From a virus (lineage: Duplodnaviria > Caudoviricetes): a DNA stretch of 64,000 nucleotides. A model generated the notes under the pieces. It had not been told where the DNA came from, ran no database searches, and saw nothing but the letters and a program-made list of their open reading frames with translations. The translations under genes were made by a program, and so were the position numbers. Where the stretch lies: IMG/VR virus record IMGVR_UViG_3300011977_000007, positions 32,001 to 96,000 of that record; one strand, given 5' to 3'. Shown here in pieces: positions 6,951 to 27,259 of this stretch (position 1 is its first letter; each line of letters begins with the position of its first letter).

Positions 6951-8182
6951 TGACTAACTGGGCACTTAAATCTAATGGGGCGATTGCCACTGCAGACAAT
7001 TATGGTGATGCGAACGTTCCAGATAACGCAATAAATGGAAGTTTAGTTACTGGAAATAATCATAATTGGTATGGTGGAAATAGATTAATGGTAACCCTAA
7101 ATGGGAAAAAATCAATATCATCAATGAAGATTATGACTACTGATAATTGGGGGGTACATTGTAATACTTTTGATTTATACTATACTTTGGACGATTCCTT
7201 GGATGTAAATTCTGAATTATCTAAATTTAAAAAAGCTGGTACATTCAAATTTAAAAATACAAAGGATACATTAGAAGAAATAAAATTTGATAATAAATTA
7301 ATTGGAAAAAAATTTATGATTATCCCAGAAATACAAAACAATGGTGTAGCTGTAGTTGAATTTGAATTATGGGGCGATGATTTTGTAGGTGTAATATTAC
7401 AATCAAATAAAAACTATTATTCTATAGATGAAAAATATTATAATTCAAGTACAAAAAATTATAATGCAATATCCGATTTAAGCGCTAGTAATTTTAGCAA
7501 TTATGAATTTAATGTTTCTGATTTATTTAATGAAATTACGATTAATGAAGAAACATTTAAACCTATAGATAAATTTAAGAGTTTTTCTATTATATCTACA
7601 AGTCAAAATACATTAACTGTAAATGGTATTAAAGTAGATAAATCTATGATTGCAACTATGGAACCGTTATCTATGGCTGCATATGAAACAATTCATAATA
7701 TTACTGCGGATTATACTACAGAAAATAATGGTGTTATTAAACTTATTTTCTCATTTAATAAGGGTAATACTTGGAAAACGTACGATGTTTCTACTAATGC
7801 ATGGAATACTGTAAGTGTAAATATTCCCACTAAATTATACGATAATTTCACATCAGAAGAGAAATCTAATTGGGATTCTGCTAGAGATACTATATTATCC
7901 GATGGAATATCTGTACAAAATTTAGGAAATGTAGTATTTTCTACAGAAACAATTAAAACTCTTATGTTTGCCATTGCTTTTAGTAGACCTACATATGCTG
8001 ATACTTGCACTTTAAGGGGATTAAATATTAAGTATGATGGTGTAGTTACTTACATTCAGCTTGCTGTTGGTAGTGATTTAACTAAATATGAAGCTAAAGT
8101 AAGAATTACTGGAGATACTATTAGAGTTACAAGTTCTACAAACTGTGATAAATTACTTATTAGTGTAGTAACTAACGTATAA
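6950..8182 (+). CDS. Discoidin/F5-8 type C-like virion adhesion protein
   Basis: NWALKSNGAIATA..P.NAING...EFELWG N-terminal domain; C-terminal half related to the 15236 product (SFNKGNTWKTY vs SKDSGASWQTY). Confidence 0.55.
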   Translation: MTNWALKSNGAIATADNYGDANVPDNAINGSLVTGNNHNWYGGNRLMVTLNGKKSISSMKIMTTDNWGVHCNTFDLYYTLDDSLDVNSELSKFKKAGTFKFKNTKDTLEEIKFDNKLIGKKFMIIPEIQNNGVAVVEFELWGDDFVGVILQSNKNYYSIDEKYYNSSTKNYNAISDLSASNFSNYEFNVSDLFNEITINEETFKPIDKFKSFSIISTSQNTLTVNGIKVDKSMIATMEPLSMAAYETIHNITADYTTENNGVIKLIFSFNKGNTWKTYDVSTNAWNTVSVNIPTKLYDNFTSEEKSNWDSARDTILSDGISVQNLGNVVFSTETIKTLMFAIAFSRPTYADTCTLRGLNIKYDGVVTYIQLAVGSDLTKYEAKVRITGDTIRVTSSTNCDKLLISVVTNV

Positions 8183-13232: not shown

Positions 13233-15221
13233 ATGCCAATTCAGATAGGGGACAACTTTCAATATAGAGGAAAGAAACCTTTGGATAATAGAAATAGTTT
13301 TGATACGACTTCTGAAATGAAGTCGTATCTTGACTCCTTTATTGATGAAGGTCATATCTCATATTGTAAAGAAACAAATAAGCATTATAAATATAATTCG
13401 TCTAATGAAGATGATCCTGTTTTAGGAAAATGGAGAGAATTTAATTCTGGTTCTTCTTCTGGTTCTGGAGATTCTACTCCTGCTAACATTATTGAAGTCA
13501 CCGATTTAATTAATACACCAAAAATTGGTGCTCAGCAAACTGTAACTTCAACAGATTTGAAAGCTAATATTTCTGATTTGAAAGTAAATCAGTTGGTATA
13601 TGATACCAGTGGATATATTGCTAAGATTGATTCTATCGATTCCACTCAAGATCAAATAGTATTAAAGGTTATTCATTACAATCCAAATTCTTCAGCTATT
13701 ACAGTAATCCCAGAACCAAATGATGATTCTAAATTATATTTTAGATCCAGAGAAGATGGGCAAAGTGCTGGTAAATGGATTGAATTTACTTCGGTAGATG
13801 GTACTAATATAAACGTAAAATTAAACGAAAAAGATAGCTCAAACACTACAGATGCAGATTATATACCTAAGCACGGAGAATTAGTTTACGATACTAATAA
13901 AAATATAATTGTACTTGGCGATGGTAAAACTAAATTGATTAATTTAAGAGCATTCTATTCAGTGGCTGTAACTGCACAAGATATTTTAAAATCTTTAGGA
14001 TTTACACCTGAGAATATTTTAAATAAAGGGCAACCTAATGGGTATGCTGGATTAGACGCTAATGGAATAGTTCCAGAGGCAAACCTTCCAGCAAGTGTTA
14101 CAAGTTCTTATAGTAAAGCTGATATTGATAAGAAGGATTCAGATGTATTAAATAGTGCTACTACTTTAGTAAATACCGAGGCTTCTACAGCTAGAAGTAA
14201 TGAAAATAAGATAAAGACAGATTTATCTAATCATACAAGTAATTTAGTTATTCATGTTACTCAAGATGATAAAGATAATTGGAATAAAAAAGTAGATCCT
14301 TCTGCATTAACTAATTATGATACTCATATTGCCGACGCTACAATTCATGTTACTCAGGCAGATAAAGATAAATGGAATGGCATGAATAAGAGTTACTTTG
14401 TGCAAAATATTTCTGATTTACCAACTACTGATAATGATATTGGTAATATTGGATATGTGCAAACATCAGCTGCTGGTATTACCCCTATAGCATGTGCTAC
14501 TTATATTTGGGACGGTACTCAATGGTTACAGTTAGATCAAACTCAAGTATCATTACAGTTTACTTGGAGTAATATAAGTGGAAGACCTAATGCTACGGCA
14601 TTAAAGATTGATGAAGCCGTAAATAGCTCTCATAAGCATAATAATAAAGGCGTATTAGATAAGATTTCTCAATCCGCTAATGGTAATTTTGTATTTAATG
14701 ATGTTGAGATTGGTATTAAGGTTATCTTTGAAGATACTGAAAAAGATTTACCTGATGCTGGTGCTGAAGATACTTTATATGTAGTATATAGAGATTCTCG
14801 TGTAAGAAATTACCCATCTATATCTGTATATAAAGACAAAGCATATCAAGTACTTGGTAGAGGTGCTCAAGATATACCTCAACAAGTAGGAGATATGAAT
14901 ATATTACAGCATGAATATTTTTCTGCTGCTAAGGGTGCACAGGTAATAATTAATGTAAATTCAAATCAATATTTTGCATTTTTACCTGTAGAAATATTAA
15001 AGAAAACTGAAGGTTTAAAAGCTCAAGATAAAGTAATACTTACAACTAATGATAGTGATAAATTTGTATATGATAAAGATCTTATTGCTGTATTAAATAG
15101 CGGGATAATTATTTCTCTTCAATCTATCCCATTAAAACTCGATAGTTCATCTGAGGGAACACATATGCTGTATGAAGATGTAGACTTATCGAAATATAAA
15201 GATATAAATTATATTGGATAG
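13233..15221 (+). CDS. Tail fibre protein
   Basis: MPIQIGDNF module; GELVYDT...GDGKT, KGQPNGYAGLD and IHVTQ.DK..WN fibre motifs. Confidence 0.65.
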   Translation: MPIQIGDNFQYRGKKPLDNRNSFDTTSEMKSYLDSFIDEGHISYCKETNKHYKYNSSNEDDPVLGKWREFNSGSSSGSGDSTPANIIEVTDLINTPKIGAQQTVTSTDLKANISDLKVNQLVYDTSGYIAKIDSIDSTQDQIVLKVIHYNPNSSAITVIPEPNDDSKLYFRSREDGQSAGKWIEFTSVDGTNINVKLNEKDSSNTTDADYIPKHGELVYDTNKNIIVLGDGKTKLINLRAFYSVAVTAQDILKSLGFTPENILNKGQPNGYAGLDANGIVPEANLPASVTSSYSKADIDKKDSDVLNSATTLVNTEASTARSNENKIKTDLSNHTSNLVIHVTQDDKDNWNKKVDPSALTNYDTHIADATIHVTQADKDKWNGMNKSYFVQNISDLPTTDNDIGNIGYVQTSAAGITPIACATYIWDGTQWLQLDQTQVSLQFTWSNISGRPNATALKIDEAVNSSHKHNNKGVLDKISQSANGNFVFNDVEIGIKVIFEDTEKDLPDAGAEDTLYVVYRDSRVRNYPSISVYKDKAYQVLGRGAQDIPQQVGDMNILQHEYFSAAKGAQVIINVNSNQYFAFLPVEILKKTEGLKAQDKVILTTNDSDKFVYDKDLIAVLNSGIIISLQSIPLKLDSSSEGTHMLYEDVDLSKYKDINYIG

Positions 15222-17723: not shown

Positions 17724-17739
17724 TAAGGAGGAAAATATT

Positions 17740-18907
17740 ATGCCAATTATTAATAGACTTCCAATCGGGGGGGGGGGCATCCTCTGAAGTAGGCATTAGT
17801 GACGGTAAAGGAATTGTAAATTTAAATATTTTTACACAAATGGATGAACCTACAAAGAAAGATGGAATTTGGATTAAAACTAATCATAAATATCAGAGAA
17901 TCATAATTAATAAACCTTATGTAGCATCAAATACTGAAACCGAAATATATTATGTACTAAATCCCGTACCATTTGACATTAGTTTTGCTCAGAAATATTC
18001 ATGTCTGCTACATGGAAATATGTATGTTGTAGGTTATATATATAATTCTAATAATGATTCGTGGACTTTTACTAATGAGCCATATGGTGTGTGGTATCAT
18101 AATGATATATATTATGCAACTTATTTGTCTAATGATGATTGGTACATATGTAGATATAATAATGGCAATCCTGTAAAAATATGCAAATTCTTGGAGAGTA
18201 GTGATAGTTTCTATGCAGTTTATAATGATGAAATATATATTAGTAATTTTGAGAATAGCACATATTATTCAATGTTTGTAAAATTTAATGGTAGTGCATA
18301 TACAGAACTTAATCCTAGCGATAGACCATCTGGTATTAGGCAAATAATATCTTATGGCGGATATTTAAATATATTTACTTTAAATGAGCATTATATATAT
18401 AATGCGGCTAATAATACTATAACGTATAAAACCTATCTCCCACGTACATATACAAATGGCTGTTGCGCAAAAGTTACGGTTCACAATAACGAGTTACATT
18501 ATTGTGCATATGATTCACATTATAAATTTAATGATTCTTCCAGTTCGTGGGTACAAGTATCTAAATGCGATGGCTTACCTAGCGATATAGATTATTTGTA
18601 TAGTGCAATTTCGTATAATGGAATTATTTATTTATTTACAGGTAAATATGATAAAAAGTTTATGTGCTTAAAATCTCCATCAGTAGTATATGATCCTAAT
18701 ACTTTAATTTTGCACAAGAAGAATACATATACTGGTACATATCTAACAGCAATTGCTGATACTTCAGCGATTATCGATGATGGAAATAATAATAATCGCT
18801 TTGTTTCCAGTTTCGATGATTGCTATTATTTTGCAGATTCTGCATTTGATTGGACTGCACCGATGTATTATGGTAATGGATCGCAATGGATAAAATTTAA
18901 AAATTAA
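17740..18907 (+). CDS. Poly-G-interrupted putative receptor-binding protein 1 (out of frame as sequenced)
   Basis: TAAGGAGG RBS, ATG 17740 MPIINRLPI, G11 at 17767-17777, then ATC CTC TGA; G10 or G13 fuses the start to ORF 17840..18907. Confidence 0.8.
17767..17777 (+). repeat. G11 homopolymer
   Basis: Directly visible, context CTTCCAATC-G11-CATC. Confidence 0.95.
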
Positions 18908-18952
18908 TATAGAGGATTTATTATCCTCTATAAATTAAAGGAGGGTAATATC

Positions 18953-20153
18953 ATGCCAACAATTAATAGACTCCCAATCGGGGGGGGGGGCATCATCTAG
19001 TGGTGCTGCCGGATTAAATATCTTTACTCAGATGAATGAACCTGAGAAGAAAGATGGTATTTGGATACAAACCAATAATCGATATGAAAAAATAATTACT
19101 GATGCTAGGATTATGGTTAATACAGATAATGGTGTTATAAGTAACAAAAGATATTTGCACTATTCTGGCACTGGTGCCCCCTCTTATTATAATTACAGTA
19201 TTGATTGTGAATATTATAATGGATCGGTATATGGATTGGTTGACTGCCAAAATGGTAGCGAAACCATATGGGTATTGCTTGTACGAATAGATAATAATAT
19301 AATTACCACTATAAATGAAAATAATGTGAAAATTAAATATATAAATAAATACATGGATAAAATATATCTTACATCCGGAACTGATAAATCTGATGGATAC
19401 TCCGTCTCTTCATTATATGTATTAAATAGTCAAATGAATCAAGAAAATTTTTTATCAATACCTATTAGTGATATATGTGGTGTTATTGAGTATAATAATA
19501 CATTACTATTTATTGGTGCTTACAATGAGTATTGCCAATTTGATGGTAATTCATTCACAACTAAGTATACGACTACTGATAATATACATGGTAATTGCGT
19601 TGTATATAACGGATATATATACACATCATCGAATGTTGGTTTATATAGATGGGATACTAATAATATTACTTTAGTATTATCGTCATTTAGAATGAATGGT
19701 CAAATGTGTGTATATAATAATAGTATTTATTATACATATGGTCCTGATTTATATAAATATAATGCAATTGATAATTCTTGTACATTAATATCCGGTAATG
19801 TACTTGATCGAGAAGGTTCAATATTATTATGCACCGATGGATATAAATTATATATGCAGACATTTAATGATAGTTGTGGTCCAGATGATAGTCTTATAAA
19901 AAATATAACTGCTAGAGTTGCCGATTATTCTTTAGCTAAACAAAATTTTGATAATAATACCGTAATATTACAGCGTGGAGAAACCGGAAATGGGAAATAT
20001 CAAACTGCATTTGCTGATTTAACTAAAAGTGTTTCTGGCGTTAATCGTTTTATTTCTGGATTCGATGACGCTTGGTTTTATAGTAGTGGAGGATTTGAAA
20101 ATTGTCCTATGTATTATGGTAATGGATTTCAATGGATAAGATTTAAAAATTAA
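18953..20153 (+). CDS. Poly-G-interrupted putative receptor-binding protein 2 (out of frame as sequenced)
   Basis: AAGGAGG RBS, ATG 18953 MPTINRLPI, G11 at 18980-18990, then ATC ATC TAG; G10 fuses to ORF 19032..20153. Confidence 0.8.
18980..18990 (+). repeat. G11 homopolymer
   Basis: Directly visible, context CTCCCAATC-G11-CATC. Confidence 0.95.
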
Positions 20154-20177
20154 AGAAGGCATTTTGCCTTCTTTTTT
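20152..20177 (+). terminator. Intrinsic terminator after RBP gene 2
   Basis: AAAGAAGGCA-TTT-TGCCTTCTTTTTT. Confidence 0.7.
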
Positions 20178-20202
20178 ATTATTAATTAAAGGAGGCGATA
20201 AA

Positions 20203-21513
20203 ATGCCTGTATTAAATAGAATAAATAGGATGCTTAGTTTTCCTATGAATAGTAGTAGTGGGGTAAGCGGGAAGTATTTTCTCGGTAGTGGACATATTTA
20301 TAATTTTAATGACAATGGTACAATTACTACTATTAATGCCCCATCCAATATATCTTTTTCATCAGCAACAAAAAATGGTAGTTATATTTGCGCTTATCGT
20401 TATAGTGACAGCAACAGTTACTACATTTATCAATATAATGGTGATTCTATAACACAGACCCAAGATATTAGTGCTTATTTAAATAACTATAATTATAGTT
20501 CTAAAATAAATGATGGCAATACATATACAATTAATAGTATTAGTAGCCCTACATTTGCTAATACTGATCAATATATTGTATTTGCAGTATCATTAAAATA
20601 TGCTTCTACTCCTTACTTACATAAAGTATATATATGTGTATTGGAATTAAATAATGGCAAATATGAAATGAGTAAAGTTATAGATTCGAATATGGGTGAT
20701 CAAAATACTGTATCTACAGGCGTATCGCTACGCGGAGTATCCGACGATTTATCATATTTTTTCGTTAGTATCGATACCCCATCCGGTAATACATACGATT
20801 CTTCTTTATATATGATATATGCTAATTCGCCTAATGCATATACAGCATGGAAAATGGATACTGAAAGAGGAACACATATTACAGTTGGATATCCTGGCGG
20901 TTCTTCTAACTGGGATGAAATTCCTAGCTTTTACCTTGCGGATAATAAATATTTTATTACCGATGTAACATCAAGTGATTTTATATACGTATATAAAATA
21001 AATGATCATAGCTCTATTACTAGAACATTTACAAGTGATTATTGCCCGCTACATACGTCAATTTCCATTAAAAATATTGAGTACATTAATAATGATTATA
21101 TAGCGCATTATACGTATAGTTATAGTAGTGACAGTTACGATCAATATTATAATTGTATATATAGGTTACAGGATAGTATTTATAATTATCGTTATTCGTC
21201 GGAACGAGAAAATGTTAATATTGGATTTTATGATTATTATGTTATACTTATAGATGATTATAGTAGAAAGACATATTATAAGTCTTCAGACGGTAAATCG
21301 TTATACGTTAAAAATAATAAATATTATCTTAATGGTAGCGAAAATAATGTAGTGACCACTGGAGAATCGGAAGTTTCAACTATGATATATCATACTAATA
21401 GTGATAACTATAATGATAGAATTTCCATAGGAAGCTATTATGGATATGATGATAATAACGGAAATTATAAATTCTTTAATATGGCAGCAAGCGTATACGG
21501 CGGCCCTTATTAA
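20203..21513 (+). CDS. Tyr/Asn/Ser-rich putative receptor-binding protein without a G tract
   Basis: AAGGAGG RBS, ATG 20203 MPVLNR, uninterrupted frame. Confidence 0.7.
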   Translation: MPVLNRINRMLSFPMNSSSGVSGKYFLGSGHIYNFNDNGTITTINAPSNISFSSATKNGSYICAYRYSDSNSYYIYQYNGDSITQTQDISAYLNNYNYSSKINDGNTYTINSISSPTFANTDQYIVFAVSLKYASTPYLHKVYICVLELNNGKYEMSKVIDSNMGDQNTVSTGVSLRGVSDDLSYFFVSIDTPSGNTYDSSLYMIYANSPNAYTAWKMDTERGTHITVGYPGGSSNWDEIPSFYLADNKYFITDVTSSDFIYVYKINDHSSITRTFTSDYCPLHTSISIKNIEYINNDYIAHYTYSYSSDSYDQYYNCIYRLQDSIYNYRYSSERENVNIGFYDYYVILIDDYSRKTYYKSSDGKSLYVKNNKYYLNGSENNVVTTGESEVSTMIYHTNSDNYNDRISIGSYYGYDDNNGNYKFFNMAASVYGGPY

Positions 21514-21546
21514 ACATATTTAATTTAATTTTTAGGAGGATTAATA

Positions 21547-22510
21547 ATGTCAATTTTAAATAAACTTCCAATTGGGGGGGGGGGCATCTGATAATACTTC
21601 CTCTGGAGAATTATTTACTAAAGATGCAATAATATCAAATGCATACTATTATTTTGATCAAATGGTACATTGTGCAACTTCAGATACGATTGTATTAGGT
21701 TATCATTTTTATTCCGATAATAAATATTGGTTTAGAAGATATACATATAAAAATAAAGTATTTACTATGTTACCTTCATTAGACCAGGTATGGAGCTCTG
21801 TAGCACGATATATCTTAGTATCAACAGATACTAGGGTATATCTTAATATAGCATCTGGATATATATATGAATACGATAATAATGATTTAGAAAATTGGAT
21901 TAATAGATATAATGATAATAATATATTTAATAGTGGGAATGGATGTGCATGTATGTTTAATAATAATATGTATGTGGTTGTTAATGATTATAATTACGTT
22001 AATGGGAATTACGAATATAATACTAATATATATTCATATGATTTTACAACCTATACGCTGTTATATTCATCTAGCTTTATTTATAATTATGCAGTACATC
22101 AGTGTATATATTATAACGGAGATATATATTTAAGATTTGGAAATCATTCTGGGGTAAAAGTATTTAATATATTAAATCATAATAATATTACAGATTTAGC
22201 TACTCCAATGAAGTATATTGGATCGATATGCGTATATAATCAATGCATATACTTTATTAGCGGAGCACAGGTAGAAGCGCAGAGGCTTTTTTATAAATAT
22301 GATGGAACTCAGTTTACATTAATATGTGATTTAACAAATCATATGAAATGTAATTATAGTTCCGATAGTATTATAATGGAAGTGATAAATAATAAATTAT
22401 ATCTTTTAGGAGATTGTATAGATAAAAGTGATAACCAAAATAGCGTATATATCTATAACTCTACGGATGGCGATTCATTTACTAAAGTATCTTGGTTATG
22501 TAGTAAGTAA
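21547..22510 (+). CDS. Poly-G-interrupted putative receptor-binding protein 3 (out of frame as sequenced)
   Basis: AGGAGG RBS, ATG 21547 MSILNKLPI, G11 at 21574-21584, then ATC TGA; G10 restores the frame of ORF 21572..22510. Confidence 0.8.
21574..21584 (+). repeat. G11 homopolymer
   Basis: Directly visible, context CTTCCAATT-G11-CATC. Confidence 0.95.
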
Positions 22511-22587
22511 TATTTTATAATTTTTAAAACAATTTAATAAATAAATATTTTTATTTACAATCAAATGGTGAAAGGAGACTATTCAAT

Positions 22588-22878
22588 ATGGCTAAGATTG
22601 ATAGTGGAAAAACTTTAGACAACAAGAAAATTGAGTATGAGATTCTTGACGATGGATATGATATCTATTTAGGTGGAAATCTTTGGATTACTCAGCACGC
22701 TCAGTATGGAAAACCGATTGATCCTGAAGGAACTTACGAAGAGAATTGTAAGAAACAGATTGAACAGATCACAACGGTTCCGGAACCAACTGTAACTCCA
22801 CAGGATAAGTTACGTGCAGATGTAGATTATCTTGCACTTATCACCGGTGTTGACTTAAATGAAAATGTATTAGCTTAA
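22588..22878 (+). CDS. XkdW-like tail fibre accessory protein
   Basis: LRADVDYLALITGVDL C-terminus; late promoter at 22528. Confidence 0.55.
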   Translation: MAKIDSGKTLDNKKIEYEILDDGYDIYLGGNLWITQHAQYGKPIDPEGTYEENCKKQIEQITTVPEPTVTPQDKLRADVDYLALITGVDLNENVLA

Positions 22879-22892
22879 GGAGGAAATATATT

Positions 22893-23111
22893 ATGGCATT
22901 CACAGCAAGAGATTTATCAAAGAAATATTACCCAAGACTTTGGCCAATTTGTCGTTTGGTTGCTTTGGTAAAAGTAGGAAAATTATCTGAAGCTGATTAT
23001 AAGGAGATTACTGGATTTACATATCCGGCTACATCAGCACCAACAGAGGAGTCAAAGGATACTAAGAATGATGCTTCTGAGACTACAGAAGATTCTAATA
23101 AGCAGAAATAA
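22893..23111 (+). CDS. XkdX-like protein
   Basis: YY..LW.....LVK.GKLSEADYKEITG pattern. Confidence 0.7.
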   Translation: MAFTARDLSKKYYPRLWPICRLVALVKVGKLSEADYKEITGFTYPATSAPTEESKDTKNDASETTEDSNKQK

Positions 23112-23205
23112 TAATTAAGAATAAATATACTGGTGCAATATAATTTGCACCAGTATACTATTTATTTTTTATATAAAATAGGATGATTTTTAAGGAGGAA
23201 AGACT

Positions 23206-24397
23206 ATGCCAGTAATAAATCGACTTCCAATCGGGGGGGGGGGGGGCATCTGAATTAGGAATTTCCAACGGTAAAGGAACTGTTGGATTGAACGTATTCA
23301 CTCAGATGGATGAACCTCAAAAGAAAGACGGAATATGGATAAAAACAAATCATACCTATCAAAATGTGATGGTAAATCAACAGTTTGCTAATTATCAAGA
23401 TGGTGTTTGGAGTGCAATTTGTCCATTGAATAATATAGGAAGGACTAAATTAGTTACAAATCAAGGTGCATTATATTTATTTAGCGATAATTATAAGTTA
23501 TATCGCCTAAATGGATCAGCATTAGAATATATTTGTGATTATAATAGTAGAACTAATGTAATGGCATCTTATAATAATTCATTATATATTATTACTGCTT
23601 CTGTAAGTACCGGATATGTATTTAAATATAATGGTATTAACTGGGAAAGAGTATCTGAATTTTATGGTACAACATATTTTGATAATTGTGTTACATTATA
23701 TAACGATCAATTATGCCTTTTTTATGGTAATAGTAATCAGACAATAAGCAACGATATATATCTATTTAATGGATCTACATTTACGCAATTATGTGATGCG
23801 ACTTTTTACGGTAGTGATAATGATAAAATACTAATAAAGAGCATTATTACTTATAATGGTAAACTATATATGTTTGGTAGTGTATCAAGATTTCCAGCAG
23901 ATGGCTTATTTTACTTTGTTTTAAATGCAGGTAATAATTGGACAAAATCAACAGTGCCAGTGACTGCAAATTCATTGTGCGTATGTACTTGCGTTTATAA
24001 TAATGAATTATATTTGTTCTATGAGGACAGAGACACTACTTATAATGATATATACTATTGTAAATATAATGGTGCATCATGGACGCTTATAGGGAAAGTT
24101 GGATATTGTGGTCAAGTTTCTTTAAATCAATATATGTACGGTGCTAGATCTTCATTATATAGATATACTTTACCGCAAAAAGTATATAATCCAAATACTG
24201 TTATTATAAATAAGGGTGATTCTCAAAATGGTGTTTATTTAACCAATATGTTTGATACGTCTTACATGGTTGGTAATAATAGCAATAGATTTGTATCTGG
24301 ATTCGATGATTGTTTTTATTTTGCAGATTCTGCATTTGATTGGGGGGCTCCAATGTATTACGGCAATGGTTCTCAATGGATTAAGTTCAAGAATTAA
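23206..24397 (+). CDS. Poly-G-interrupted putative receptor-binding protein 4 (out of frame as sequenced)
   Basis: TAAGGAGG RBS, ATG 23206 MPVINRLPI, G14 at 23233-23246, then ATC TGA; G13 fuses to ORF 23288..24397. Confidence 0.8.
23233..23246 (+). repeat. G14 homopolymer
   Basis: Directly visible, context CTTCCAATC-G14-CATC. Confidence 0.95.
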
Positions 24398-24538: not shown

Positions 24539-26707
24539 TTGTTTAGAAAAATTACTTATACTGATAAAGAAGATATACTTGGCCTTGTTTCTATTGATAA
24601 TAAAAATAAAGTAACAGCTCAAGATATGAATGATATCAAGAATGCTATTAATGATAATACTACAGAATTAGATAAAATAATGGTGCATTTAGCAGGAGAT
24701 ACCATGACTGGTGCTTTAAATTTTAAAGCTAATACTTGGAATAAATATGGTTCTAATGTTGCTGTTGGAGCTATTAATACTGCCGGTACCCTAGCAGTAA
24801 AGGGATTGGATGGAAAAACTACTATTAGATTAGTTCCTAATGGAGCTACTGATAATAATGGTGTTACATGGGCAGCTAATTCTGCTACAGATTCTACTAT
24901 TAGTGGCACTCTTAATGGTAGTTTTAAAGGCCCATTAGAAGGAAATGCTGCTACAACCACGAAGCTTCAAACTGCAAGAACCATTAATGATACTTCATTC
25001 AATGGTACTGCTAATATCACTACTGCTAAATGGGGAACTGCTAGAGATATTACATTAGGATTAACAAAGAAATCTGTTAATGGTTCTACTAATATGGCAT
25101 GGACTTTAGCAGAAATGGGCGCTTTACCAGCTGCCGGTGGTAGCATGACTGGCGATATTAAATTTTCAAATGTTCAAACTGGAATGCGCGGTATTACGGG
25201 AACAGTTGGAGATAATGATAACTGGAGAGTAGTTGGTGTATCTACTGCATCGGATGCTGGATATTTAGAAATTGCTACGGCTGATGGGGGAGACGAGCCA
25301 ATATATGTAAGACAATATTCTTTTAAAGATAGTAATTCATTTGGAACTGTTGCTAGAACTGCTACAATATTAGATGCTTCTGGTAATACTACTCTGCCCG
25401 GATTATTAACTGTTAATGGTATTCATTCATCTAAAGCTTGTACTTTTGATGATAATTTAACTGTTAAAAAGAATATTACAGGTAATGGTACCCTGTCAAT
25501 AGACGGAGTTACAACTCTTAAGAATAATGCAAATATTAACGGTACTTTATCTGTTGATGGAGCTACAACACTTAAAAATACATTAAGTGTTACTGGAGCG
25601 CTTACTGTACATGGTGGTATAACCGGATCTTTAACCGGTAACGCTTCTACTGCAACTAAGTTAGCTACTGCTAGAACAATTTCTTTAACAGGATCTGTAA
25701 CTGGTAGTGGTACATTTGATGGTAGTGGTAATTTATCAATAGCCACAACAACGAATCATACACATGCATATTTACCGACTGCCGGTGGTAGCATGACTGG
25801 AAATATTAATTTTAATGGTAGAGGTAATAATTATATAGGTGCTGGTCCAAGAGATGGTGCTGGCGGTGTAGGTGAAGAATTAAATAACCTTGTAATTTCA
25901 GCATGGTATGGTGTATCTTTTACAACATTATGCGATGGAAAATATAAAAATAAAAACGCTGTAAGTATTAATACTAGAACTGGCCATGTGTATGCTAATA
26001 CTTATCATGGTGCTTTAAGTGGAAATGCTTCTACAGCTACAAAAGCAACGCAAGATTCAGCAGGACAACAAATTAATACAACTTATATTAAAGGATTATC
26101 TGTATCTGGTAGGACTATTACTTATACTAAGGGTAATGGCACTACAGGAACAATTACAACTCAAGATACCACATACCCTTTTAAAGCTATGACTATTGAT
26201 GGTAGTTATACTACAAAATATCGTACACAAACAAAAGGTAATACTGCTAGTGGCGATTATATAACCACCATAAGAAACGATACAGCTAATGTAAGTAACT
26301 CCCCCCAATATGGTTCCGGTTTAGCTTGGGGTAGGGGTGATACACATGGATATATGTATATGAGTTATAGCTCACCTGAAGCTTATGTTGGTGGTGGCAA
26401 TGCTGATAAACTTAACTGGGTTAAAAAAATAGGATTTGCTCCGATAACCACTAATGTTATTGCATATGCTGGTTGGTGGGGAGGTGGTGCTGCTCCATAC
26501 ACATGCACTATTAATATAGCAAATGTTACAGCAAGTAATGTTGTTGAAGTAGGTTTAGCTTCTAATGCAAATGATGATCAGGTTAAAGCATGCATGAAAG
26601 CAAGTATTGCTAAAATAACCCAAGCAAATGGTTCTATTACATTATATGCTTATGGGACAAAACCAACGGTAGATATACCACTTTCTATAGTAATAATGGA
26701 AAATTAA
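24539..26707 (+). CDS. Long tail fibre protein
   Basis: Repeated GNASTATKL.TARTI fibre motifs; N-terminus shared with 2628, C-terminus shared with 17169. Confidence 0.8.
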   Translation: MFRKITYTDKEDILGLVSIDNKNKVTAQDMNDIKNAINDNTTELDKIMVHLAGDTMTGALNFKANTWNKYGSNVAVGAINTAGTLAVKGLDGKTTIRLVPNGATDNNGVTWAANSATDSTISGTLNGSFKGPLEGNAATTTKLQTARTINDTSFNGTANITTAKWGTARDITLGLTKKSVNGSTNMAWTLAEMGALPAAGGSMTGDIKFSNVQTGMRGITGTVGDNDNWRVVGVSTASDAGYLEIATADGGDEPIYVRQYSFKDSNSFGTVARTATILDASGNTTLPGLLTVNGIHSSKACTFDDNLTVKKNITGNGTLSIDGVTTLKNNANINGTLSVDGATTLKNTLSVTGALTVHGGITGSLTGNASTATKLATARTISLTGSVTGSGTFDGSGNLSIATTTNHTHAYLPTAGGSMTGNINFNGRGNNYIGAGPRDGAGGVGEELNNLVISAWYGVSFTTLCDGKYKNKNAVSINTRTGHVYANTYHGALSGNASTATKATQDSAGQQINTTYIKGLSVSGRTITYTKGNGTTGTITTQDTTYPFKAMTIDGSYTTKYRTQTKGNTASGDYITTIRNDTANVSNSPQYGSGLAWGRGDTHGYMYMSYSSPEAYVGGGNADKLNWVKKIGFAPITTNVIAYAGWWGGGAAPYTCTINIANVTASNVVEVGLASNANDDQVKACMKASIAKITQANGSITLYAYGTKPTVDIPLSIVIMEN

Positions 26708-26765: not shown

Positions 26766-26795
26766 AAAACAGTAGGGCTAAGCCCCTACTGTTTT
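26766..26795. terminator. Bidirectional terminator-like hairpin between convergent genes
   Basis: AAAACAGTAGGG...CCCTACTGTTTT. Confidence 0.75.
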
Positions 26796-27259
26796 ACTTC
26801 TTCTATTATATCGGGATTCATTATTAATATACTATCGCAATCCCATCCGCATAATGAATAGTACAAATCTCGGCATTCGCTAATATTTACTTCAATCGCA
26901 TCATACTCTTTAGATAATTTTTCAAAATCCAAGAATATGAATATGCTAATACCCCTAAGTAATGGTAATTTGTTTTGTGCCATTGGTAATCTAGATAGTA
27001 TATCAGTATTATTGATATATAATACTTTGGCACCATCTTTTAATTTAAATCTAAATGCATCATTCTCATCAATATCTCTAAATTCTTCATCAATGCACCA
27101 ATCTTTCCACCCAAATTTAGCATCTATTCTAGATGCCCAGAACCCCCCTCTAGGTTTTGTAAATAGTTGTATGTTTTCTATAGGCCTACACATTTCCTTA
27201 CAAAATTTCTTATGCCCGTAATGAACGTATATTGGTTTTTCCATATTAAATTCCTCCAT
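26786..27259 (-). CDS. Hypothetical protein (probable early gene)
   Basis: ORF with an early-type promoter at 27292..27275; KPRGGFWAS and WDCDSIL motifs. Confidence 0.6.
   Translation of the reverse strand: MEEFNMEKPIYVHYGHKKFCKEMCRPIENIQLFTKPRGGFWASRIDAKFGWKDWCIDEEFRDIDENDAFRFKLKDGAKVLYINNTDILSRLPMAQNKLPLLRGISIFIFLDFEKLSKEYDAIEVNISECRDLYYSLCGWDCDSILIMNPDIIEEVKQ

Follow-up and report, generated by a model that had tools for sequence, protein, structure and literature searches.

The 64,000-nucleotide window analysed here, bases 32001-96000 of the 110,263-bp IMG/VR record IMGVR_UViG_3300011977_000007, contains four plus-strand genes in which a long run of G separates a short leader from the body of the gene. 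With a probability of about 0.6, we read these four tracts as hypermutable contingency loci that share a common leader and a modal length of 11, and whose phases are not independent of each other. The reading builds on the tract anatomy and the frame relations of the four genes, on the ON/OFF variation among their alleles in public assemblies, and on protein fold and genomic context, all of which the analysis shows. The record (29% G+C) is a fragment of a jumbo phage, as judged from its CheckV completeness of 35%.

The G runs occupy positions 17767-17777 (11 G), 18980-18990 (11 G), 21574-21584 (11 G) and 23233-23246 (14 G). Elsewhere in the whole 110,263-bp record, runs of G or C reach at most six, and shuffles predict 0.01 runs of at least 10 G; all four are thus intragenic homopolymers that exceed the length of about seven units typical of a contingency locus and lie far above chance. 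Every run begins at codon 10, directly after codon 9, of a frame opened by an ATG (17740, 18953, 21547 and 23206), and all four ATGs are preceded by a strong AAGGAGG Shine-Dalgarno (SD) site and a spacer. The leader peptides follow the pattern M-P/S-x-I/L-N-R/K-L-P-I, which in gene 3 reads MSILNKLPI. Beyond the run, the ATG frame continues as GGC ATC CTC TGA in gene 1, GGC ATC ATC TAG in gene 2 and GGC ATC TGA in genes 3 and 4, so that the leaders span 17740..17787 (TGA at 17785-17787), 18953..19000 (TAG at 18998-19000), 21547..21591 (TGA at 21589-21591) and 23206..23253 (TGA at 23251-23253). The sole long open frame after each run is offset by +1 and comprises 376 codons in gene 1 (17777..18907), 387 in gene 2 (18990..20153), 308 in gene 3 (21584..22510) and 383 in gene 4 (23246..24397). 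The continuity of each gene would require one G fewer or two G more, that is, an in-frame length of 3n+1 (10 or 13). The preliminary description of this DNA had reported that the lengths 11, 11, 11 and 14 are all 3n+2 and that each run is followed by GGC ATC (CTC/ATC) and a stop, which is exact. Because the bodies stay open over 308-387 codons despite an out-of-frame stop density of 8-17%, the genes must be considered alive. In what follows, a tract at an in-frame length is called ON, and tracts one G too long or one G too short are called ON+1 and ON-1.

GGG is the rarest glycine codon of the phage, accounting for 7% of its glycine codons, and the glycine linker in distant in-frame relatives is encoded by mixed GGT, GGC and GGA codons (L062 and L066, around 7950-8050). 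For these two reasons, the poly-G tract appears to be a derived and selected feature, and the homopolymer would most plausibly be retained for its mutability. The SD site, the ATG and the nine-codon leader are nearly identical in DNA among the paralogues (window 17725-17780, 18938-18993 and 23191-23250; leaders of the sister-phage sequence L016), with alignment columns invariant through the SD site, the ATG and CCAAT, whereas the bodies are just 29-42% identical in protein. The flanks common to the fibre paralogues read ATC/ATT-G(n)-CATC. Such conserved 5' ends suggest either strong constraint or gene conversion.

The alleles of these genes in public assemblies indicate that random ON/OFF switching is real. 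The profile search returned 82 protein clusters, and the members of 30 clusters were examined. Most alleles lie on ENA/Logan contigs of 170,169; 267,044; 262,011; 261,926 and 104,057 bp and are known as proteins, in which an in-frame allele appears as leader, G codons and body, and an out-of-frame allele as a call from an internal start. The clearest case is protein P0106 from the 170,169-bp ENA contig, which is 100% identical to gene 4 over 383 residues and begins with MPVINRLPIGGGAS, corresponding to 10 G and an in-frame gene, as opposed to the 14 G in the window. On that contig, the tract of gene 3 has exactly 11 G (P0157), and genes 1 and 2 are called out of frame. At least five other clusters at 90% identity mix ON and OFF alleles, and further in-frame alleles are P0084 (the orthologue of gene 1), P0130, P0131, P0141, P0160, P0165, P0168, P0174 and P0180. 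Some clusters hold an allele of 10 G (ON) beside one of 11 G (OFF), a single step apart (P0026 vs P0153; P0165 vs P0065), and in a pair of near-identical genomes, each of about 262 kb, one gene is ON in the first (P0168, 262,011-bp contig) and OFF in the second (P0167, 261,926-bp contig). The tract length therefore differs between near-identical genomes, and its change toggles the full-length product.

In-frame lengths of 13 and 16 G were both found (P0027 and P0176), and the lengths seen or inferred comprise 7, 8, 9, 10, 11, 13, 14 and 16. Among 96 distinct sequences, 27 are in frame, 11 are provably ON+1, and 58 are out of frame with the phase unassigned. The in-frame share (about 28-37%, from 27/96 distinct sequences and approximately 18/48 cluster representatives) is near one third and therefore close to the expectation for free switching. 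These in-frame alleles, including the one of gene 4 from the same strain, do not agree with the proposal of programmed slippage rather than random switching in the preliminary description, as they show that ordinary in-frame decoding is the normal route of production. Megablast and tblastn found no close DNA relatives among GenBank phages, the pattern and protein scans of IMG/VR returned only one sister phage together with distant relatives lacking tracts, and a metagenome scan added four distant relatives without G runs; a scan of genome collections found none. The mixed glycine codons of the distant relatives show the state preceding the evolution of the homopolymer.

The sister phage, IMGVR_UViG_3300045988_173509 (265,692 bp, 98% complete; a neighbouring protein is 96% identical), is the sole relative compared at the DNA level, and the phase statistics rest on two genomes. 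All of its G/C runs of at least 8 lie within about 11 kb around the matching array. Its fibre paralogues carry tracts of 9 G (ON-1), 10 G (ON+1, the in-frame length of this gene being 9), 8 G (ON+1), 11 G (ON+1) and A plus 10 G (ON+1); a small extra open reading frame (ORF) has 11 G (ON+1) and a minus-strand gene 9 G (ON+1), whereas the length and state of a tract at the contig end are unreadable. Six of the seven readable tracts are thus one G too long, including those of two genes that are not fibre paralogues, and the shared phase is not confined to a single contig, which supports this part of the preliminary description. Its figure of 1 in 27 for four agreeing phases nevertheless fails, because the tracts are not independent: leader and flanks are near-identical, and three of the tracts are equal in length. 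Taken together, the two genomes have no tract in frame: of 11 tracts, 10 are ON+1 and the other is ON-1 (P = 0.006 under equal odds for the two OFF phases; nominal P of about 1e-4 against the share of 0.33 in the control survey described below). Followed into homologues, the proposed phase constraint holds in the sister genome and not among the database alleles, of which 27 in 96 are in frame. The phase bias is genuine in the two genomes read at the DNA level, and in this lineage the shared phase stands out as a quantitative oddity. A length of exactly 11 is found in six of the ten ON+1 tracts; the remaining five tracts split 4:1, which is not significant.

The sister contig ends within a leader poly-G (MPTINRLPI followed by at least nine G; L017 9992-10000), and its first bases (L016 1-30) continue the body of that gene. 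Since the contig ends in a tract and starts with the rest of the gene, the assembly evidently broke at the poly-G, and the sister genome probably closes at the broken tract or is circularly permuted.

In the contingency-locus reading, replication slippage would change the number of G, and each change would join or separate the shared nine-codon leader and the variable beta-propeller body of a fibre-tip protein. Each candidate receptor-binding gene would be switched ON or OFF heritably and at random. Because leader and flanks are nearly invariant, the same in-frame class of 3n+1 applies to all fibre paralogues, and given a modal tract length near 11 in phage replication, the shared phase would arise automatically. 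The tracts of this lineage would cluster at 11, the OFF length adjoining the commonest ON length of 10. A metagenome consensus would display the majority state at each locus and would be OFF everywhere if sub-populations express different paralogues. The shared 3n+2 phase is then most simply a by-product of a common preferred length.

Several observations weigh against this interpretation. Ten of 11 tracts at ON+1 with none ON is an unlikely outcome for independent tracts (P of about 1e-4 and 0.006, as above). The bias also extends to lengths of 8, 9, 10 and 14 and to two unrelated genes, for which a single modal length is insufficient. Furthermore, the only measured poly-G mutation spectrum, that of Campylobacter jejuni, has a neutral mode of 9 (PMC3401435), which would be ON-1 here, and a different replication set point is needed. 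The C. jejuni spectrum itself was rejected as the source of the bias, as it predicts ON-1, not ON+1.

An error of sequencing or assembly that adds one G to long G runs, the genes being truly in frame, had been raised as the mundane explanation. Both genomes are metagenome assemblies, one contig terminates inside a G run, and two assemblies of one strain differ at tract 4 (14 vs 10 G), so that long tracts are hard to call. As a control, IMG/VR was scanned for AGGAGG, a spacer, ATG and 5-13 codons followed by at least nine G, and the frame of every match was classified. The 49 unambiguous tracts comprised 24 in frame, 16 ON+1 and 9 ON-1. Those from the sister phage's own metagenome (3300045988) were 10, 10 and 3, respectively, as compared with 14, 6 and 6 elsewhere, and several control gene families were called with 9, 10 and 11 G, which fell into all three phases as expected. 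Since the control tracts, including those from the same metagenome, are spread over every phase, a blanket +1 miscall is unlikely. The excess of ON+1 over ON-1 (16 vs 9) is not significant, although a mild general ON+1 excess is possible, and with only 4 of the 49 control tracts reaching 11 G, the test is weaker for the longest runs. In addition, 11 G at two tracts was reproduced by independent assemblies, with a uniform +1 error many of the alleles that are in frame in the databases would really be broken genes, and PCR stutter usually shortens runs rather than extending them. Long ORFs of the assembly are not interrupted at A/T runs of 7-8, which is a weak test of homopolymer errors. We regard the artefact as very improbable. 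Concerted evolution, in which gene conversion between leaders copies the tract length so that equal phases reflect one event, would fit the far better conservation of the leader DNA than of the bodies and the three tracts of exactly 11. However, positional orthologues retain the same codon-3 leader variant (I, T, V or the SIL type) while differing in tract length (11/9, 11/8 and 14/11), so the lengths have changed after any conversion, and the two unrelated genes are left unexplained; we give conversion little credence. The view that the genes are decaying pseudogenes with irrelevant tracts can appeal to all four being out of frame in this assembly, but it is hardly tenable in light of the open bodies, the N- and C-terminal modules kept in dozens of homologues and the common in-frame alleles.

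It was also considered that ON+1 might be a selected leaky state, a "dimmer" yielding a constant minority product rather than a true OFF. The product could come from +1 slippage of ribosomes on the rare GGG, pushed by the 5' part of the run as by an SD-like element in the manner of prfB, or from the loss of one G during transcription by the phage's own multisubunit RNA polymerase, and every virion would carry small amounts of several receptor-binding proteins. Such a state would explain why ten tracts are ON+1 and none ON over lengths of 8-14, two non-fibre genes included, why the tracts of positional orthologues stand exactly 3 G apart in two pairs (14 vs 11 and 11 vs 8), which keeps the phase, and why the 11-G state recurs on several independent contigs (P0004 on four, P0157 on two); the rarity of GGG and the control survey, which opposes an artefact, also speak for it. 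On the other hand, these genes often occur as in-frame alleles, once even in the same strain, and shared leaders inflate the statistics. The out-of-frame arrangement is not conserved (27 in-frame vs 69 out-of-frame alleles), nor is the tract length. In prfB-type +1 frameshifting, the shift codon lies directly beside the stop, together with an SD-like element. The G run may resemble the latter, but the shift-codon-plus-stop arrangement was not found at any of the four tracts, where the leader stop lies 2-3 codons beyond the last GGG instead of adjoining it. The earlier suggestion of frameshifting on GGG-G next to a stop is thus not supported, given the position of the stop, the lengths of 7-16, and the lack of a conserved RNA structure or special tRNA. 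Early leader stops are expected in any case, since stop codons make up about 17% of codons in the frame read at ON+1 in this genome and homologous Ala-Ser-Ser/Glu codons supply them. No conserved RNA structure was found 3' of the tracts (RNAalifold consensus of -3.6 kcal/mol with an unfavourable covariation term), and single-sequence folding gave z-scores from -0.04 to -3.6 with neither a shared fold nor covariation. RNA polymerase slippage in the Escherichia coli and Buchnera transcriptomes consists of insertions, which occur at A/T runs and are lacking at G/C runs, and deletions from homopolymers are few (PMC5574713), which disfavours a rescue that needs a one-base deletion in a G run. Judged by these features, the sequence carries no mark of programmed recoding, and we consider a selected leaky state unlikely. 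In its strongest form, the run of about 11 G would be a built-in recoding site and ON+1 the selected working state of a three-level switch (off, dim and full), which we find slightly more doubtful still. If it were true, out-of-frame paralogues would be expressed at a low and fixed level until DNA slippage to an in-frame length raises one to the full level, and genetic and translational slippage on one tract would together make a three-level host-range switch.

Other ways of reading the genes were tried and rejected. A quadruplet-reading tRNA has no candidate, as both phages lack a tRNA-Gly and any tRNA with a four-base anticodon; the 110-kb record yielded no tRNA at all, and the 98%-complete sister has those for Met, Tyr, Gln and Ser only. 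An alternative genetic code is ruled out because the ATG frame soon meets TGA, TAG and TAA. Internal initiation or reinitiation lacks a start codon in the body frame near the tract or the leader stop, and the Met within FTQM(D/N)EP is not conserved, being P, L, Q, T or I in homologues. A small hairpin (GCAUC, loop, GGUGC or GAUGC) extends from the last G of the tract in four of six paralogues (window 18989-19010; L016 1273-1292, 6734-6750 and 8027-8045) and is absent from genes 1 and 4; it exists because the Ala-Ser-Ser-Gly-Ala codons encode it.

As to the proteins that the tracts would gate, three of the four genes and their homologues have a variable centre framed by an N module (LNIFTQMNEPEKKDGIWI) and a C module (NRFVSGFDDCFYFAD...WIKFKN), and both modules are kept across dozens of homologues; in gene 1 they read LNIFTQMDEPxKKDGIWI and, at the end, WIKFKN. 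Gene 3 is a distant propeller-type paralogue (hhalign probability 92%). Pfam gave weak Kelch matches on the array proteins. AlphaFold2 predicted the full-length allele P0106, and hence gene 4, as a six-bladed beta-propeller (pLDDT 82), for which Foldseek retrieved Kelch, DDB1, sialidase and endosialidase propellers. The first 24 residues of the model are disordered, glycine run included, so that extra glycines are presumably tolerated. The array is flanked on both sides by genes with tail-fibre matches: an upstream gene (13233..15221, plus strand) with Mtd_N and PHROG tail fibre matches, and a downstream tail fibre protein gene (24539..26707, plus strand) matching several PHROG tail fibre families. 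The location in a fibre module, the conserved ends and the variable centre are what is expected of fibre-tip proteins. Context and predicted fold lend good support, if not proof, to a role of the four proteins as exchangeable fibre tips or receptor-binding proteins.

To our knowledge, poly-G phase variation of receptor-binding genes has been demonstrated experimentally only in Campylobacter phages. In the Fletchervirus receptor-binding genes, as reported by Sorensen (2021, Cell Rep 35:109214) and related in PMC8713573, PMC12633550 and PMC10579305, hypermutable poly-G occurs as intragenic runs of 7-11 G that switch the genes, with several alternatives per phage and mixed populations. By analogy, the switch in the window would be of the same kind as these phase-variable genes (Sorensen et al., 2021). 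It differs in having 4-7 paralogues per array with a common nine-codon leader and the tract always after codon 9, in the Kelch-like beta-propellers, and in its carrier, a jumbo phage that is uncultured, AT-rich and equipped with an RNA polymerase of its own. Moreover, the tracts are longer (mode 11, up to 14-16), share the same OFF phase in two genomes and are known from sequence alone.

Poly-G/C loci of C. jejuni are similar in being homopolymers within the reading frame with single-unit steps, length-dependent mutability and a modal length set by mutation (Bayliss et al., 2012; PMC3401435). Their mode of 9, as opposed to 11 here, implies a different set point or the action of selection, and they belong to a cell rather than a virus. 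The bet-hedging loci of phages (Gomez, Barrick and Waters, 2025, preprint; PMC12633550) share short repeats, reversible mutation and population heterogeneity; however, those are mostly A/T runs of 6-9 nt in T-even and other phages and are under-represented in tail fibres, whereas the long G runs described here are confined to the fibre module. As in the programmed transcriptional slippage of IS elements and dnaX (Baranov et al., 2005; PMC1088944), a homopolymer could pass a fixed fraction of product into another frame, but the tracts lack the conserved length, the conserved out-of-frame arrangement, the A/T run and the defined stimulator of those sites.

A poly-G device would accordingly gate a whole propeller-type array of fibre tips in an uncultured gut jumbo phage, and stochastic switching of host range is probably a widespread trait of large gut phages. 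The findings raise the question of whether the usual OFF state is biased to ON+1 by mutation or kept because it is leaky. They also have a practical side, as gene callers truncate or miss poly-G-gated genes and consensus assembly masks which receptor-binding proteins a phage population expresses. The futC gene of Helicobacter pylori combines a poly-C switch with a -1 translational frameshift cassette by which the OFF state is partly rescued. That cassette consists of an A-AAA-AAG heptamer and a downstream structure; no such cassette follows the tracts here.

Some further features touch the array and the survey. A 449-codon ORF (20164..21513, plus strand) begins 11 nt beyond the end of gene 2. 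It lacks a tract, shows no resemblance to the paralogue family and has no family match; its syntenic counterpart is a 443-codon ORF after the matching gene of the sister phage. The product of the 449-codon ORF could be a partner or chaperone, expressed according to the state of tract 2. Among the near-start poly-G loci of the IMG/VR survey (L067-L171), 44 of 105 come from metagenome 3300045988, where allelic series of 9, 10, 11 and 14 G occur in several unrelated families of phage genes (for example, L090/L103/L152 and L146/L077/L117). The small extra ORF of the sister phage (L017 9631-9641), which sits between a conserved 193-codon gene and the first fibre paralogue and has no counterpart in the window, carries its 11 G after codon 6 (MLFPNQ), followed by a body of about 90 codons that is one G off. 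Finally, a 157-codon minus-strand gene is intact in the window with only six G (26786..27259), whereas its sister orthologue has nine (L016 10785-10793) and is one G out of frame, from which it appears that a non-fibre gene gained a switch in one lineage.

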